This document shows, piece by piece, positions 741 to 29,593 of a stretch of DNA of 40,515 bases. Positions within the stretch are counted from its first letter, which is position 1, and every line of letters starts with the position of its first letter. The position numbers and the translations under genes were made by a program. Under the pieces are notes generated by a model, which saw only the letters and a program-made list of their open reading frames with translations, searched no databases and was not told where the DNA came from. The stretch comes from an uncultured Thermofilaceae archaeon (GTDB lineage: Archaea > Thermoproteota > Thermoprotei > Thermofilales > JAPDKD01), in assembly GCA_964587325.1 (NCBI GenBank), contig CAZPLI010000001.1, positions 1 through 40,515 of the forward strand, read 5' to 3'.

Positions 741-2939
741 ATGTTGAGGGTAGACCAGCTCCCGCTCCCTCAAAGTCTCAAAGAGGCCCTCGTGAGACGA
801 GGTTATGTAACTCTCTACCCACCTCAGGAAGCCGCCGTTCGCAGCGGAGTACTAGAGGGCGAGAATCTCCTTCTGTGCTCTCCCACAGCCTCAGGAAAAA
901 CGCTGATCGCGCAAATGCTCGCATTTAAACGCGTACTCGAGGAAGGAGGTCTCGCTCTCTACCTAACCCCTCTACGTGCACTAGCATCAGAGAAGTACGA
1001 GGACTTTAAGAGCTTAGGAGACGAGCTAGGCTTAAGGGTGGCACTCTCTGTAGGCGATTACGACTCGGCTGATCCCTGGTTAGATAAGTACGACGTTGTC
1101 GTCGCAACTAACGAGAAAGCCGATAGCCTTCTTAGGCATAAACCAGCATGGCTGAGTAAACTAAGGGTTATTATACTTGACGAAGTACACCTAATTAACG
1201 AAAATAAACGTGGACCCACCCTTGAAATGATCGTCGCGAGGCTGAAGAACTTACCAAACCCTCCACAGATCCTAGCACTCAGTGCTACTGTGCGAAACGC
1301 CGACGAGATAGGAGAATGGCTAAACGCGCGTGTTGTAAAGAGCGATTGGAGACCTGTAGAGTTAAGAGAAGGAGTATACTTTGAAGGCGACCTTGAGTTC
1401 AATAATGGTGTGACTAAATACATTGAACCAAGATTAGGACCTATAACAGACTTAACACTTGATTGCCTCGACGAGAACGGTGAAGTACTAATATTTGCGC
1501 CTACTAGGAGAAGCGCTGTTAGCTGGGCGCGTAGGCTCTCTAAATACGTCCCATCACATTGCGAAAAATCTGAGAGAAAACTCTGCAAAGCACTCGCAGA
1601 GAAACTCTTGACAGCCGAGAACAACATCGTAACACGTCAGCTCGCAGAACTCGTAGCCAAAGGCGTAGCGTTTCATCACGCAGGCCTTTCTTATGGCGTA
1701 AGAAAGCTTATCGAAGAAGGATTTAGAAAGAGTATAATCAGAGTCGTAGTAGCTACTCCAACACTAGCTGCCGGCGTTAATCTCCCAGCTAGACGCGTAA
1801 TAATAGCAGACTACAAACGGTACAATGTTGAGCTAGGGTTCTACGAGCGCATCTCGGTCATGGAGTACAAGCAGATGGCAGGGCGTGCAGGGAGACCTCA
1901 GTATGATGAGTACGGCGAATCCGTCCTGATAGCTAAGACCCTTGAAGAGAGGGATTTCCTTTGGGAGGTCTATGTTGATGCTTCTCCCGAGCGCGTAACA
2001 TCTAAGCTCGCATCAGAGCCCGTGCTCAGAGCTCACCTACTAGCAACGGTAGCTAGCGGATATGCTAACACAATAAACGACGTAACCAGAGTGTTTTCCT
2101 CCACACTGTTCGCACACCAATTCGGACTCTTTGGGCTAGAAACCTCTCTTCGTGAGGCACTTAGGTTCCTCAGAGAGAATGGAATGATTGTAGAGAAGGA
2201 AGGCGGCCTCGTAGCCACAGAACTCGGTAAACGTGTCTCATCTCTCTATATCGATCCGCGCTCGGCTGCAATTATCGTGAAAGGTCTCCGGTCCAAGCCT
2301 CGTAGCGTACTGGCTTATCTTCACTTAATCACTGCTACTCCCGATATGCCTAAGCTATATCTCCGAAGAAAAGAGTCAGAGAAATATGAGGAGCTGGCCG
2401 AAGAGCTGGAGGGAGAGCTACTACTTGAGCCTCCATCGAACCCCTACGACTACGAATTCTTCTTAGCAGAGCTCAAGACTGCACTCTTGCTGTACGACTG
2501 GATCGAGGAAAAAACTGAGGACGAACTGATAGAAAAGTACGGTGTGGGGCCTGGCGACATTTACACGTTAACTCAAACGGCCGAGTGGTTAGCTTATGCA
2601 GCCTCGGAGATCGCCGCCACGCTAGGTTACATGGAGCATTATACCCCATTGAGAACACTTAGAGCTAGAATAAAGCATGGCGTGAAGGAGGAACTTCTAG
2701 AGCTGGTCTCCATAAGAGGTATCGGGCGAGTAAGAGCAAGAGCTCTCTATAACAGTGGCATTAAGACCCTGAGAGATCTGCTTGAGGTGAGTATAGAAGA
2801 GCTAGCGCGTATACCGACTATAGGTCCTAAGCTAGCTGAGCGAATAAAAGCTGAGCTGACGGGACAGACAAATGCTAGTGACCGTGCTGATCTAAGAGAA
2901 GAAAGTGAGAAACAAGTAACACTGGAAGATTTCTTCTAA
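741..2939 (+). CDS. hel308: Hel308/Hjm Ski2-like SF2 DNA helicase
   Basis: Motifs PTASGKT, DEVH, SAT, FHHAGL and QMAGRAGRP, plus a C-terminal HhH region (GIGRVRARALY). Confidence 0.95.
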   Translation: MLRVDQLPLPQSLKEALVRRGYVTLYPPQEAAVRSGVLEGENLLLCSPTASGKTLIAQMLAFKRVLEEGGLALYLTPLRALASEKYEDFKSLGDELGLRVALSVGDYDSADPWLDKYDVVVATNEKADSLLRHKPAWLSKLRVIILDEVHLINENKRGPTLEMIVARLKNLPNPPQILALSATVRNADEIGEWLNARVVKSDWRPVELREGVYFEGDLEFNNGVTKYIEPRLGPITDLTLDCLDENGEVLIFAPTRRSAVSWARRLSKYVPSHCEKSERKLCKALAEKLLTAENNIVTRQLAELVAKGVAFHHAGLSYGVRKLIEEGFRKSIIRVVVATPTLAAGVNLPARRVIIADYKRYNVELGFYERISVMEYKQMAGRAGRPQYDEYGESVLIAKTLEERDFLWEVYVDASPERVTSKLASEPVLRAHLLATVASGYANTINDVTRVFSSTLFAHQFGLFGLETSLREALRFLRENGMIVEKEGGLVATELGKRVSSLYIDPRSAAIIVKGLRSKPRSVLAYLHLITATPDMPKLYLRRKESEKYEELAEELEGELLLEPPSNPYDYEFFLAELKTALLLYDWIEEKTEDELIEKYGVGPGDIYTLTQTAEWLAYAASEIAATLGYMEHYTPLRTLRARIKHGVKEELLELVSIRGIGRVRARALYNSGIKTLRDLLEVSIEELARIPTIGPKLAERIKAELTGQTNASDRADLREESEKQVTLEDFF

Positions 2940-9614: not shown

Positions 9615-10967
9615 ATGATAATAAGTAGAGCCGAGCTAGACCTTGAGCTAGGATTAAAGTATTACTCGAGCAGCAGTGAGGGGATAGGCGGGCGCATAAG
9701 GAGCGTGCCCGAGGACTTCGTAGTCATCGAAGTCAATGAGCTAGGTGAGCTGGCGTTTCCCTATGCAAGCCCTCCGAGAGAAGGAAGTGGAAATTTTACA
9801 TGGTTTATACTTGAGAAACGCAAGGTGGACTCGATTACTGCACTTAAGCTTGTAGCTAAAGCTCTAGGTGTTAGTCATAAAAAATTCTCTGTAGCAGGGC
9901 TTAAGGACGCTAGGGCCTTAACGTACCAGTTTGCCTGCGCAGAAGGAGTCCCTCCGGAAGACATAGTAAGAGTAGAGACACCATATGTGAGAGTAATTGC
10001 TGCCTTTCGAATGCCGTTCAAACTAACCCCAGGAATGCTATTCGGAAATGTATTCGTAATCGTAGTGCGCGACGTTAGTCTCTCTCCCAGCTTGGTCGAA
10101 ACGCGCATACTCAAGATACTTAAAGAAATCAAGGCTAATGGTGGTGTACCGAATTATTATGGTTATCAAAGATTCGGAACTATAAGGCCGAACACTCATA
10201 AAATTGGTCGCCTAATAGTTAAGGGCATGTATAAAGAAGCATTCGAAGAGGCGGTGCTCAGAGTATATCCTCGAGAGAGTCCATGGTCTAAGGAGGCAAG
10301 AGAATACCTCGCAGCAACGGGAGATCTGAGGGGGGCTCTCAAAAAGTTCCCTCCAAACCTACACCATGAGCGAACGATGATTAAGTACCTAGCCAGGCAT
10401 CCCGGGGATTACGTGGGCGCGTTCCGCGCGCTACCCCTCTCTATTCGGCGCCTCTTTATTGGTGCCTACCAAGCATACCTGTTCAATAGGGTACTAAGCC
10501 GACGCATAGAGCATGGATTACGAATAGACAGGGCCTACGTTGGCGATATCGTTGCGATATACCATAAGAGTGGCTTCAAAGTTAGACTAAGAGGAATACT
10601 ACGTGTGACAGACACTAATGTAAGTAAGATTAACGAGCTTATCAAACGCGGCCAAGCTCACTTGGTAATAAACGTATTTGGTTACCGAACAAAGCTTGCA
10701 GGCGGAATACAAGGAGAAATAGAAAGAGAGATTCTTCGAGAAGAGGGCATATCTCTAGCTGACTTTATGATTAAAAGTATACCTGAAGCTTCCTCTAAGG
10801 GCGATGTCAGACGGAGTTGTCTCAATCCGCTTAAGTTATCATTTAGAGTTTTGAAAAGCAGTGAGACGCTTGTTGAGTTCTCCTTCTTATTGACTAAAGG
10901 ATCGTATGCAACGGTATTACTACGAGAATTTATTAAGCCTAAGGATATAATAGCCGCAGGGTTTTAG
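9615..10967 (+). CDS. truD: tRNA pseudouridine(13) synthase TruD/Pus7
   Basis: PEDFVVIE, AGLKDARALT, PNYYGYQRFG and GSYATVLLRE motifs. Confidence 0.95.
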   Translation: MIISRAELDLELGLKYYSSSSEGIGGRIRSVPEDFVVIEVNELGELAFPYASPPREGSGNFTWFILEKRKVDSITALKLVAKALGVSHKKFSVAGLKDARALTYQFACAEGVPPEDIVRVETPYVRVIAAFRMPFKLTPGMLFGNVFVIVVRDVSLSPSLVETRILKILKEIKANGGVPNYYGYQRFGTIRPNTHKIGRLIVKGMYKEAFEEAVLRVYPRESPWSKEAREYLAATGDLRGALKKFPPNLHHERTMIKYLARHPGDYVGAFRALPLSIRRLFIGAYQAYLFNRVLSRRIEHGLRIDRAYVGDIVAIYHKSGFKVRLRGILRVTDTNVSKINELIKRGQAHLVINVFGYRTKLAGGIQGEIEREILREEGISLADFMIKSIPEASSKGDVRRSCLNPLKLSFRVLKSSETLVEFSFLLTKGSYATVLLREFIKPKDIIAAGF

Positions 10968-11038: not shown

Positions 11039-11899
11039 ATGGCGGACCCACCCGCGCGAGTCTGGGTTAAATTCAAGGCGGGTAGCGAAGAAGCTCTAAG
11101 CACTGCCAGGAGAGTAATTCGAGCACTAGAGACCCGGGGAGTAAAGGCGTACGCAGACCCCTTGCTGGCAACATTGCTGGAGATGAGAGATAAGGCTCTG
11201 AGAGAAGACGAGCTGTCGGACATCGATATGGTCATAGTAGTGGGTGGAGACGGGACTTTATTAAGGCTCTTTCACTCTGTAGGTGAAGATCTACCCCCTA
11301 TCTTAGGGGTCAACAGCGATCGAATAGGATTTCTATTCGACTACGACTGGCGCTTCGTAGAGGAACTGATTGACAAGATAGTAAGTGGAAATTACATTGT
11401 GGAACATAGAAGTGTAGGGGAAGCAACACTGGAGGAAGGTCCGTCATATAGATTCATTAATGAAGTTGTGATAGGTAGCTATAAGACATTTAAAATGATC
11501 AGCTTAGAAGTGTGTATAGATAATGAGCGGTTATACTCTGGACGTATGGACGGTGTCATAATATCAACCACGACAGGCTCTACTGCTTACGCCCTCTCAG
11601 CAGGAGGGCCTTTAGTCGATCCCCACTTAGACGTGATAGTAGTCGTACCCATTGTCCCATTCTCTCCTCTACTCAAACCAGTAATCTTAGCCCCTCAACG
11701 GAGAGTCCTAGTCCGCCTGTTTAAGGACGGAATCCTCGCGTTTGACGGGATAGAAACCGTTCAGGCTCCCGCAGAGTCAGAGATTAAAGTTAAACTACGA
11801 CCTGGCGGGCTGAGACTCGTTAGAGTACCCGGAGGACATACACTAGAGAGGAAGGTCAAGAGTAGGCTTTTAGACCTACCTCCCTGGAGCCTCGAGTAG
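11039..11899 (+). CDS. nadK: NAD(+) kinase
   Basis: GGDGT, NE and DGVIISTTTGSTAYALSAGGP motifs. Confidence 0.93.
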   Translation: MADPPARVWVKFKAGSEEALSTARRVIRALETRGVKAYADPLLATLLEMRDKALREDELSDIDMVIVVGGDGTLLRLFHSVGEDLPPILGVNSDRIGFLFDYDWRFVEELIDKIVSGNYIVEHRSVGEATLEEGPSYRFINEVVIGSYKTFKMISLEVCIDNERLYSGRMDGVIISTTTGSTAYALSAGGPLVDPHLDVIVVVPIVPFSPLLKPVILAPQRRVLVRLFKDGILAFDGIETVQAPAESEIKVKLRPGGLRLVRVPGGHTLERKVKSRLLDLPPWSLE

Positions 11900-11914
11900 A
11901 TTCTCGCATAGAAG

Positions 11915-11989
11915 TAGTGTACCGGGTGTGGGTATTCCGCCTATCATCGCGGCCTCGGGCCTCTCCGGCGGAGACCATTCACCCGGCCC
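11915..11989 (-). ncRNA. Box H/ACA pseudouridylation guide sRNA candidate (single hairpin)
   Basis: Minus strand reads GCCGGGUG-AAUGGUC-UCCGCC-GGAGAGGCC-CGA-GGCCGCGAUGAUA-GGCGGA-AUACCCA-CACCCGGU-ACA. This gives an 8-bp basal stem followed directly by ACA, a 7x7 internal pocket, a 6-bp upper stem and a K-turn-like GA/GAUGA element. Confidence 0.8.
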
Positions 11990-12043
11990 ATTTAATATGA
12001 GGGTTTACGCCTTTATTTCTTCCTTATCTAACTCTTAACGGGC

Positions 12044-12670
12044 CTACTTGGCCTGAGCCACTTGCTGGGGAATCTTGAGAGGAATCTCGAACGTCGGAGT
12101 TAGCACCTTAATTTTCCTTATTTCAGCCTTGTATAAGGGGTAGATCTTCTTCGCTCTCACCATGATCTCGCCAGCTATCTGGCCTAGCACAGCCTCCTGG
12201 ACGAACGAGTCAAAGTCTAGCTTGGACGCTTTCTCCTCAATAATCTCAAACATTATTTTTCGTATGGCTCTTTCCTGCGAAGTTTTTACCCTCCGCATAG
12301 TTACTGCCATCGCCATAACTCTGAGCCTAACACCATCTGTTGTGCTCACGTCAATTATCGCGTCAACCCTCGAGCGCCCACGCCTAACCAGACTCCTAAT
12401 GTAGTCCCGTGTTAGCTCGAAGCCCTTAAACTGTGTGTAGGCAGTATCTCCTTCGACCTTAACTATCTGAAACTTTAGCTTTATAGCCAGCTGGGCGGGG
12501 TCCTTTGTTATGTTATAGAAGCTTACCTCCATAGTTCTTCCGAGGAGACTCTTCTCGTCATTAGCTGGTACTACGCCTAACTCTGCGAAGCCGAAGGCGC
12601 TGGAGGCCAGTACTCGGAACCACTTCTTCTGCGCCCACTTGTCTCTTGCAGCCCTAGCCCTGCTCGACAC
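12044..12670 (-). CDS. rps3ae: Ribosomal protein eS1 (S3Ae); GTG start at 12670 after a GGAGGTG SD
   Basis: RDKWAQKKWF, FKGFELTRDYIRSLVRR and KKIYPLYKAEIRKIKV motifs. Confidence 0.95.
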   Translation of the reverse strand: MSSRARAARDKWAQKKWFRVLASSAFGFAELGVVPANDEKSLLGRTMEVSFYNITKDPAQLAIKLKFQIVKVEGDTAYTQFKGFELTRDYIRSLVRRGRSRVDAIIDVSTTDGVRLRVMAMAVTMRRVKTSQERAIRKIMFEIIEEKASKLDFDSFVQEAVLGQIAGEIMVRAKKIYPLYKAEIRKIKVLTPTFEIPLKIPQQVAQAK

Positions 12671-12726
12671 GAGTAACACCTCCCGTGCTATATCCTAGCA
12701 CCCTTTAAGCTTTTGCTCGAGACTCT

Positions 12727-13098
12727 CTAATGCGGGACCTTGAGCCCCAAGTATACTCTTACGCCTTCTCTGAGCCATGCCGGAAGGTCGCCGCTCAGCT
12801 TAGCGAGTATACCCCCGAATGATATCAGTACCTCCTTGTCTCGGACCTTGTAAACTTCGCCGGAATAGGCGATTTCGGACTCTAAAACCTCCCGGCTCTT
12901 TTCTTGAGAGAGTACTATGTCTACCCGTGCCCCCTCCTTTAGGTCGAGATCGGCCTCTTCTATTAGCTTCTCAGGAACTTCGATCTCTAGCTCGATCTCC
13001 TTATCGGTCTTAATTACGAGAACTCTGACACGATAGGGGTACCGACTCTCTAGGCGCTCTATAGTCCCGCTTAGTCTAACCTGCTGCAACTTTACCAC
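12727..13098 (-). CDS. rpo8: RNA polymerase subunit Rpo8 (RpoG, Rpb8 homolog)
   Basis: OB-fold size; Y-S-G-E-V-Y-K...LISFGGIL matches the Rpb8/Rpo8 signature. Confidence 0.75.
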   Translation of the reverse strand: MVKLQQVRLSGTIERLESRYPYRVRVLVIKTDKEIELEIEVPEKLIEEADLDLKEGARVDIVLSQEKSREVLESEIAYSGEVYKVRDKEVLISFGGILAKLSGDLPAWLREGVRVYLGLKVPH

Positions 13099-22227: not shown

Positions 22228-22303
22228 AGCCCGGTGGTGTAGCGGCCAAGCATGGCGGGCTCTGGCCCCGCTGACCGGGGTTCGAATCCCCGCCGGGCTA
22301 CCA
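22228..22303 (+). tRNA. tRNA-Gln(CUG), no intron, CCA encoded
   Basis: Acceptor stem AGCCCGG/CCGGGCT, anticodon arm GCGGG-CTCTGGC-CCCGC and T-loop TTCGAAT; AAAACGCTTATA promoter-like motif upstream. Confidence 0.97.
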
Positions 22304-28694: not shown

Positions 28695-28804
28695 GCGGCC
28701 GTAGTCTAGCCTGGACTAGGATGGCGGCCTGCCACGCCGCAGAACGCCCCGCGCACAAGCGGGGCGCGCGTGATACCCGGGTTCGAATCCCGGCGGCCGC
28801 ACCA
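28695..28804 (+). tRNA. tRNA-Gly(GCC) with a non-canonical intron (~28743-28774) in the variable loop
   Basis: Acceptor stem GCGGCCG/CGGCCGC-A-CCA and anticodon arm GCGGC-CTGCCAC-GCCGC. An extra hairpin CGCCCCGC-GCACAA-GCGGGGCG lies before the T arm. Promoter-like GAAAGCTTAAATA upstream. Confidence 0.93.
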
Positions 28805-29492: not shown

Positions 29493-29593
29493 GGCCCCGG
29501 TAGCGCAGACTGGTAGCGCACCGGCCTGTGGAGCCGGACCTGAAAAACATAGAAAGCCGGGGGACCCGGGTTCGAGTCCCGGCCGGGGCCCCA
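29493..29593 (+). tRNA. tRNA-His(GUG) with encoded G-1 and a 23-nt intron at 37/38 (29532-29554)
   Basis: G-GCCCCGG/CCGGGGC-C-CCA acceptor. The splice motif has helix CTGT/ATAG with bulges GG^A and AA^A. Promoter-like GAAAGGCTTAAG upstream. Confidence 0.94.

Follow-up and report, generated by a model that had tools for sequence, protein, structure and literature searches.

A predicted single-hairpin box H/ACA guide RNA family of the Thermofilales with a putative target at the peptidyl-transferase centre of 23S rRNA

Does the short gap between two convergent genes of an uncultured Thermofilaceae archaeon hold the gene of a small guide RNA and, if so, which nucleotide would that RNA modify? In the 40,515-nt stretch of DNA analysed here (the window), the NAD kinase gene nadK (11039–11899, plus strand) and the S3Ae gene rps3ae (12044–12679, minus strand), the identities of both being backed by Pfam, converge on a gap of 144 nt. 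The initial annotation had placed there, at positions 11915–11989, an unannotated H/ACA guide RNA aimed at the peptidyl-transferase centre of 23S rRNA. Our analysis confirms the observation and supports the guide interpretation, with the predicted target refined to the equivalent of E. coli U2586: at a probability of about 0.7, the minus strand at 11987–11918 holds the gene of a box H/ACA guide sRNA that consists of one hairpin, is transcribed on its own and is directed at this position. In such an RNA, L7Ae would bind the K-turn, the arms of the internal loop would pair with 23S rRNA on both flanks of UGGGUU-U-A-GACCGU in domain V, and Cbf5 would isomerise the third U of this motif, the U2586 equivalent next to the peptidyl-transferase nucleotide U2585, to pseudouridine. 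Transcription, RNP assembly, modification and the assignment to U2586 instead of U2585 are steps that we infer from sequence comparison. As for the proteins, Nop10 (81.4 bits) and Gar1 (30.6 bits) are encoded in the window's genome, and the DKCLD, TruB_N, TruB_C_2 and PUA domains of Cbf5 are found there spread across two reading frames.

Anatomy of the hairpin

Read directly from the sequence, the H/ACA-like hairpin occupies positions 11987–11918 of the minus strand. The span originally assigned thus frames the element, albeit with two to three surplus bases at each end, and every part that had been listed (basal stem, arms, upper stem, K-turn-like element and ACA) is present on this strand. 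The 5′ strand of an 8-bp lower stem (GCCGGGUG, 11980–11987) is followed by a 7-nt 5′ guide arm (AAUGGUC, 11973–11979), the 5′ strand of a 6-bp upper stem (UCCGCC, 11967–11972), a K-turn with a small apical hairpin (11942–11966), the 3′ strand of the upper stem (GGCGGA, 11936–11941), a 7-nt 3′ guide arm (AUACCCA, 11929–11935) and the 3′ strand of the lower stem (CACCCGGU, 11921–11928), which pairs with the 5′ strand and includes a terminal G-U pair. The ACA box (11918–11920) comes directly after the lower stem and 15 nt downstream of the upper stem. Between the two strands of the upper stem the RNA would read GGAGA-GGCC-cga-GGCC-GCGAUGAUA, that is, an asymmetric internal loop with GGAGA on one strand and GCGAUGAUA on the other, surmounted by a 4-bp apical stem (GGCC/GGCC, first pair G11963–C11949) with a CGA loop. 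The GA at 11965–11964 lies opposite the GA at 11945–11944, the latter inside an invariant AUGA, which at the level of sequence makes a K-turn and a putative binding site for L7Ae.

The minimum free energy of the minus strand is −35.9 kcal/mol (z = −2.56), and one of 200 shuffled sequences folds as well; folding energy alone is modest evidence for the element. The plus strand reaches −35.7 kcal/mol and, since both strands fold equally well, energy cannot choose between them. When the free RNA is folded, the GG and CC of the two guide arms are able to pair together. Rfam families searched at their gathering thresholds yielded three tRNAs and nothing else in the whole window, and Rfam has no family that matches the element.

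Conservation in the order and genomic setting

BLAST returned 10 clear homologues among 60 relatives, and a covariance model (R1) was built from 11 sequences, namely these and the window copy. Of the 41 genomes of the order, 27, the window's genome included, each contain a single R1 match, as do 17 of the 27 that are at least 90% complete; no match was found in 79 genomes from other orders of the class, among them 29 of the Pyrobaculum family. The window copy scores 83.9 bits (E = 2.8e-13 in a 1.58-Mb genome) and is the sole match in its genome at E ≤ 5, the lenient setting at which no second copy was detected there. Lenient searches of three relatives (G031, G034 and G039) gave, besides the main copies, only 18-bit matches; those in G031 and G034 were considered as second copies and rejected, as they represent a different, atypical H/ACA-like RNA.

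Structural conservation in relatives, which had been proposed as a test of the guide interpretation, is pronounced. When the 27 sequences are aligned, pairing holds in 97.3% of 404 cells, and both sides change in 12 of the 15 pairs; these figures are to be read with the caveat that the alignment was fitted to R1 itself. None of 500 shuffles reaches the observed values, slid controls pair in 26–51% of cells, and RNAalifold independently recovers the same two stems. Across the 27 genomes, seven of the eight lower-stem pairs change on both sides with 98.1% of cells pairing, and some genomes have a fully rewritten lower stem (GGCGGAGG/CCUCCGCU, GUCGGACC/GGUCCGAG and GGGGCCUC/GAGGCCCC). Both-side changes also affect five of the six upper-stem pairs, the bottom one being U-A in 10 sequences, G-U in seven, G-C in six, A-U in two and C-G in one. 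The ACA box and the AUGA are present in all 27 sequences, the 5′-strand GA and each of the arm cores GGUC and CCC in 26–27, the A adjoining the upper stem in the 3′ arm in 26 (the exception, in G023, is an alignment artefact) and the G-C pair opening the apical stem in 25; the copies of G033 and G004 lack the apical stem and have a K-loop in place of the K-turn hairpin. Counted from the upper stem, the ACA box follows at 14 nt in 11 sequences and at 15 nt in 16. Compensated drift of the stems next to unchanging single-stranded arms is what a guide RNA would be expected to show, and by this comparison with relatives the element is lifted far above chance. The archaeal Cbf5/L7Ae guide architecture that had been proposed for it is therefore borne out by its sequence-level hallmarks, which are all present and conserved with compensatory changes. 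R1 could also serve to annotate this putative Thermofilales guide RNA in metagenome-assembled genomes that lack rRNA.

The same comparison bears on the strand. Relatives carry G-U or U-G cells in the stems (six at alignment pair 4–92, seven at 23–77, two at 25–75, and others) that would become C-A if read on the opposite strand, just as the initial annotation had argued from the G-U pairs of the window copy, and R1 scores the sense strand at 36.6–88.5 bits compared with at most 28.5 bits for its four antisense matches. The minus strand is thus preferred on four grounds: the ACA box, the direction in which the K-turn is oriented, the G-U pairs of the relatives and the model scores on the two strands.

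A hairpin in this position might be thought to end transcripts rather than to guide modification. It shares its strand with rps3ae, lies 56 nt 3′ of the stop codon of that gene within a 144-nt convergent gap, and folds equally on both strands, as would suit a terminator or 3′-UTR hairpin shared by rps3ae and nadK, or else a chance palindrome; furthermore, TTTT occurs within 30 nt 3′ of the ACA box in only 7 of the 27 loci, which is weak terminator evidence. However, at none of the 26 loci with a homologue elsewhere did tblastn find rps3ae or nadK within 1.5 kb, and the hairpin nevertheless persists in these genomes as a single copy with AT-rich boxes of its own. Nor would an invariant set of arms, ACA box and K-turn signature, or strand-specific G-U pairs, be expected of a terminator. 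We consider this explanation very improbable.

The surroundings instead suggest that the RNA is a gene of its own, without dependence on its neighbours. When nadK, rps3ae, the open reading frame at 12727 and truD were compared by tblastn with the 27 loci, no conserved neighbourhood emerged, with two exceptions, a homologue of the 12727 reading frame in a same-genus genome and truD in G004. Upstream of the hairpin, counted from the first stem base, the 27 loci share one box at −29 to −24 with 85–96% A/T, against a background of 55%, and a proximal box at −10 to −2 with 74–89% A/T, the two being centred at about −27 and −6. In archaeal promoters, the TATA box precedes the start site by about 26 nt. 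The two AT-rich boxes would fit a TATA box and a transcript that starts where the hairpin begins; in the window, the putative TATA box is AAATAAAG (12011–12018, minus strand, about 24–31 nt 5′ of the first stem base), and the candidate proximal promoter or initiator region is the AT-rich TCATATTAAA (11991–12000, minus strand), directly 5′ of the hairpin. The sequencing runs listed for positions 11600–12400 comprise six DNA metagenomes, with no RNA run among them.

Predicted targets in 23S and 16S rRNA

The window's genome (175 contigs, 94.6% complete) contains no 23S rRNA, no 16S rRNA and no UGGGUUUAGACC anywhere in its assembly, so complementarity was tested on the rRNAs of relatives only. 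The 23S rRNA of all seven relatives used in the comparison (five complete and two partial genes) reads AUGGGUUUAGACCGUCGCG, and the arms match UGGGUU-U-A-GACCGU, identical in the seven, within domain V's central loop; for the window organism's own 23S rRNA, the predicted target stretch is UGGGUUUAGACCGU. The three U's of the motif correspond to 2584, 2585 and 2586 of E. coli K-12 rrlH, and the third of them is position 2739 in G005. The 5′ arm would pair with GACCGU (E. coli 2588–2593), and the ACCCA of the 3′ arm with UGGGU (E. coli 2580–2584); the corresponding duplexes have energies of −6.8 kcal/mol (GACCGU:AUGGUC, with GACCGUCG) and −6.6 kcal/mol (ACCCA:UGGGU, 5 bp). The 23S segment that the initial annotation had given was right in substance, except that the relatives read A-UGGGUUUAGACCGUC, with A and not C before UGGG. 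The pairings deduced from it stand as far as ACCCA:UGGGU and AUGGUC:GACCGU are concerned, but not the further pair between the last U of the 5′ arm and A2587: that U is the bottom base of the upper stem and, as it covaries with its partner, it belongs to a stem pair. Similarly, the site named as the target, the equivalents of U2585 and U2586, is supported, with U2586 rather than U2585 emerging as the most likely modified base from the relatives that have 6-nt arms.

We scanned every U in the 16S and 23S rRNA of one relative in the canonical H/ACA register, in which each duplex directly adjoins the upper stem and the target keeps two bases unpaired, a bulge of the second base being allowed for 7-nt arms. 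The third U of the UUU came out on top for 25 of the 27 guides. The window guide scores 29 at this U, as against 18 at the next-best site, and none of 200 arm shuffles reaches 29; the 23S site is, however, its best only with U11934 bulged or mismatched opposite U2585. In a strict bulge-free register, the arm AUACCCA does not pick the 23S site, and its best canonical matches, scoring 18–20, lie elsewhere. In the arm-shuffle control over all 27 guides, none of the 200 shuffles reaches the top score for 14 guides and 1–4 do so for seven; for the remaining six, with 11–127 shuffles, the control is weak.

The choice between U2586 and U2585 turns on the two arm classes. In 11 members the 3′ arm is 6 nt long, and six of these carry AACCCA or AACCCG, which pairs with UGGGUU (2580–2585), while their 5′ arm (…GGUC) pairs from G2588 onwards, with 14 nt to the ACA box; in G005, G012 and G020, this canonical pairing holds on the 23S rRNA of the same genome. 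As the AACCCA arms leave exactly U2586 and A2587 free, the modified base would most likely be the equivalent of U2586 and not U2585. The window RNA belongs to the other class, which has 7-nt arms (AUACCCA; also AAACCC and ACACCC) and 15 nt to the ACA box. Here, modification of the U2585 equivalent at the same 23S site, or of both U2585 and U2586 through alternative pairings, has to be weighed: the window RNA and 14 other members of the 7-nt class prefer ACCCA:UGGGU and, as seen when the window arms are folded freely with the target, U2585, U2586 and A2587 are all left unpaired. There are also precedents for the use of neighbouring U's, in that stem-loop 2 of the H. volcanii guide modifies two U's of an unpaired UNUN, according to the sections of that study consulted here (PMC7075261), and another study (PMC8763049) reports guides of human cells that can each serve two U's in succession.

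Against this stand the AACCCA and AACCCG members, in which U2585 is itself paired, and the description of a third unpaired target base as unfavourable (PMC4652768). In addition, the spacing from U2586 to the ACA box is constant and corresponds to n+15, as in H. volcanii stem-loop 1, and H. volcanii U2604, the equivalent of E. coli 2585, is unmodified, both as set out in the excerpts used of the same report (PMC7075261). Within the family, this spacing along the 3′ strand amounts to 14 nt between the two elements in both arm classes, and the extra base of the 7-nt class sits at the top of the arm, beside a position where U, C and A all occur, which would suit a spacer. Because of the equal ACA distance and the spacer-like extra base, U2586 is, if the RNA acts as a guide, quite probably the base addressed across the whole family; the evidence is less clean for the 7-nt class, and with the arm of the window copy itself 2586 is the presumed choice over 2585. 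A guide directed at U2585, alone or together with U2586, appears unlikely.

A second site in rRNA resembles the first. The 16S rRNA contains GGGGAU-U-A-GAUACC, the second U of which is position 751 in G005 and equals E. coli U789, in the 790 loop. The arms of the G039 copy (AGGUAUC and AUCCCC) match this 16S site perfectly, with 6+6 bp at −9.0 and −7.2 kcal/mol, and do not match the 23S site. In four other copies (G031, G040, G034 and G009), the 3′ arm (AUCCCC in two, AUCCCA and AUCCCU) suits 16S better than 23S, and the 5′ arm fits 23S; the 23S target motif is unchanged in G040 and G009. In the five genomes with AUCCC arms, the 16S target motif was not found, 16S rRNA being absent from those assemblies. 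In S. islandicus, a guided pseudouridine at 16S-U747 has been equated with yeast pseudouridine 999 in the portion of the study cited here (PMC11077068).

These copies, together with the record, in the accessible part of its source, of an S. islandicus guide with eight targets, might be taken to mean that the main substrate of the window RNA is another RNA, be it a tRNA, an RNA from outside the ribosome or the 16S rRNA with its 790-loop U (the U789 equivalent). In the scan of 16S and 23S rRNA, however, the window guide itself scores 17 on the 16S site versus 29 on the 23S site. Moreover, its 5′ arm would form only about three pairs on 16S (−2.2 kcal/mol), and three pairs per side are too few in vivo in H. 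volcanii, as stated in the sections drawn upon (PMC7075261). Another main substrate therefore seems decidedly improbable, and guidance to the 23S U2586 equivalent remains the preferred reading for the window RNA.

The hairpin family as a whole may, more tentatively, represent a guide that evolution has moved between the 23S peptidyl-transferase site and the 16S 790-loop site, a possibility to which we give less than even odds by some distance; the copies of G031, G040, G034 and G009 could then be dual-site guides or intermediates of a target switch. If true, this would amount to a stepwise retargeting of rRNA modification between the ribosomal subunits within one small-RNA lineage, and it would place in the peptidyl-transferase centre of a Thermoprotei lineage a pseudouridine not known there at this position. 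The variation of the arms, including those of the copy that fits the 16S 790 loop, would in any case offer a natural series on the tolerance of guides to bulges and mismatches and on changes of target.

Relation to known archaeal guides

The closest named families in Rfam are small RNAs of Pyrobaculum, which belongs to the same class of archaea. In a scan of positions 11800–12100 at E ≤ 10, the only H/ACA matches were PyrR204 (RF02802; 20.3 bits, E = 0.064, covering the K-turn part only) and PyrR208 (11.3 bits), both falling far short of the respective gathering thresholds (71 and 64 bits), next to chance microRNA matches. Some features are shared: the lower stems of sR201 and sR202 are also of 8 bp, and the descriptor of sR204, sR208, sR209 and sR210 matches the upper stem and K-turn described here, including an additional base that the 3′ strand has immediately beneath the GA pairs. 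Membership in PyrR204 was nevertheless rejected on account of the low score, its restriction to the K-turn part and the arms, which differ in genuine sR204 copies; those of four Pyrobaculum genomes have the arms GAGUG and CCCCCCGGC and are without a lower stem or ACA. Orthology with sR201 and sR202 was likewise dismissed because their guide arms differ. Targets of the Pyrobaculum RNAs are reportedly listed by Bernick et al. 2012 (RNA 18:402). No Pyrobaculum counterpart was found in the comparison with the arms of sR201, sR202 and sR204 and in the search of 29 genomes with R1; that list or the supplement of PMC11077068 could show one.

Single-hairpin guides of the same classic form, with K-turn, internal loop, lower stem and ACA, are known from S. 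islandicus as sR115 and sR435. Their targets differ from that predicted here, and in S. islandicus the equivalent of E. coli 2586 is not a pseudouridine. The part of the published mapping used here lists three pseudouridines only in its 23S rRNA (2060, 2066 and 2597), along with m3U at 2724 (PMC11077068), which by the offset of 2597 (E. coli 2457) would be the equivalent of E. coli 2584. Nor do the listed pseudouridine sites of P. abyssi include one at the E. coli 2586 equivalent when their numbers are converted with a presumed offset of about 92; the excerpts consulted of the study of Grosjean et al. 2008 agree that it was not found in P. abyssi and report no HP1 counterpart in the crenarchaeon Ignicoccus (PMC2584109). 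In view of its absence from S. islandicus and P. abyssi, the modification is not general in archaea.

The predicted target base has been documented so far in haloarchaea. Pseudouridine 2621 of H. marismortui 23S rRNA is given as E. coli 2586, and Grosjean et al. 2008 predicted for it a Cbf5 guide hairpin, HP1, which they called a homologue of stem II of Pyrococcus Pf7/Pab40, again in the part of the text available to this comparison (PMC2584109). For H. volcanii, the relevant sections state that pseudouridine 2605 is abolished by deletion of sR-h45 and restored by stem-loop 1 alone and that 2603 is probably m3U (PMC7075261). Pf7/Pab40 is a three-hairpin RNA, in contrast to the single hairpin found here, and both Pf7 and sR-h45 are likened to the Thermofilales RNA through their published descriptions.

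Our literature search found no publication on H/ACA RNAs of Thermofilum or the order Thermofilales. As judged from sequence, the mechanism and target position of the RNA are already known from the validated haloarchaeal guide, and its lineage and RNA family are not described before. It would add an unannotated, well-supported H/ACA guide family to a hyperthermophilic order, in relatives of Thermofilum and Infirmifilum, and it predicts that their equivalent of E. coli U2586, which directly adjoins the catalytic U2585, is a pseudouridine.

Stem-loop 1 (HP1) of sR-h45, to the extent that it is described in the sections used, thus offers the most direct comparison. The two RNAs share the predicted target base, the canonical pairing with UN unpaired (for the window's 7-nt arm only with one guide base bulged or mismatched), action through Cbf5 (predicted for the Thermofilales RNA) and an ANA box after the lower stem at about n+15. 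They differ in that sR-h45 is a double hairpin in a euryarchaeon, whereas the Thermofilales RNA, from a Thermoprotei lineage, has one hairpin; in the 3′ box, which is an AUA within the H box in stem-loop 1 and ACA in the Thermofilales; and in the pairing of the arms, put at '3 and 5 bp' for stem-loop 1 in those same sections (PMC7075261) and predicted to be more extensive, 5–6 plus 4–6 pairs, in the Thermofilales. Predicted to share both mechanism and target position with the haloarchaeal guide, the RNA would be of a known kind, in a lineage for which our literature search found no such guide.

Surroundings of the guide RNA in the window

A TruD/Pus7 family pseudouridine synthase gene (window 9615-10967, plus strand; Pfam E = 9e-129) lies two genes away from the guide RNA, and in one relative, G004, a TruD homologue (locus L063 1643-3007; 45% identity) directly adjoins that genome's guide copy. 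Given that no TruD link was found within 1.5 kb of the guide at the other 25 loci, this proximity may be coincidental.

The 3'-terminal part of nadK, the convergently transcribed NAD kinase gene, contains a near-perfect inverted repeat (window 11842-11888) that follows the guide's ACA on the minus strand at a distance of about 30 nt. It is composed of ACUAGAGAGGAAGGUC, a 15-nt spacer and GACCUACCUCCCUGGA, and could form a terminator-like hairpin serving the convergent transcripts. The repeat also matched a microRNA model on both strands, which we dismissed as a chance match. The window further encodes three tRNA genes, all on the plus strand (22228-22300, 28695-28801 and 29494-29590), the latter two of which measure 107 and 97 nt, respectively, lengths that suggest the presence of introns.

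A split gene for Cbf5

Outside the window, on contig C21 of the same genome, the gene for Cbf5, the synthase partner of H/ACA guides, is shared by two reading frames, one encoding the DKCLD domain (locus L078 1477-1758) and the other the TruB_N, TruB_C_2 and PUA domains (1739-2506). Removal of 22 nt (GCCCCC...GGGAAA; about 1701-1722) within the catalytic Asp codon restores ...HGGTLDPKVSGVLPI..., and, judging from the sequence, the insert looks like a crenarchaeal cbf5 pre-mRNA intron, for which lengths of 0 in Thermofilum and 22 in several Sulfolobales have been reported (PMC2738675). The split may alternatively represent an assembly frameshift.

Variant and distinct hairpins in relatives

The guide copy in G039 (locus L055 1501-1576, minus strand) carries alterations in both arms, AGGUAUC and AUCCCC, which fit the 16S rRNA 790-loop site GGGGAU-U-A-GAUACC rather than the 23S rRNA site. 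Weak matches to R1, the covariance model of the guide, in G031 and G034 (loci L082 and L083, around 1501-1566, minus strand) correspond to a distinct small hairpin with a K-turn (CGA...GAUGAAA) and a nearly absent 3' arm, in which the 12 nt at the 5' terminus, GCCGGCAGGAUC, show complementarity to the start of 16S rRNA (..GAUCCUGCCGG). This hairpin is reminiscent of the S. islandicus H/ACA RNAs classed as atypical, one of which, sR109, targets 16S-U8 (PMC11077068).
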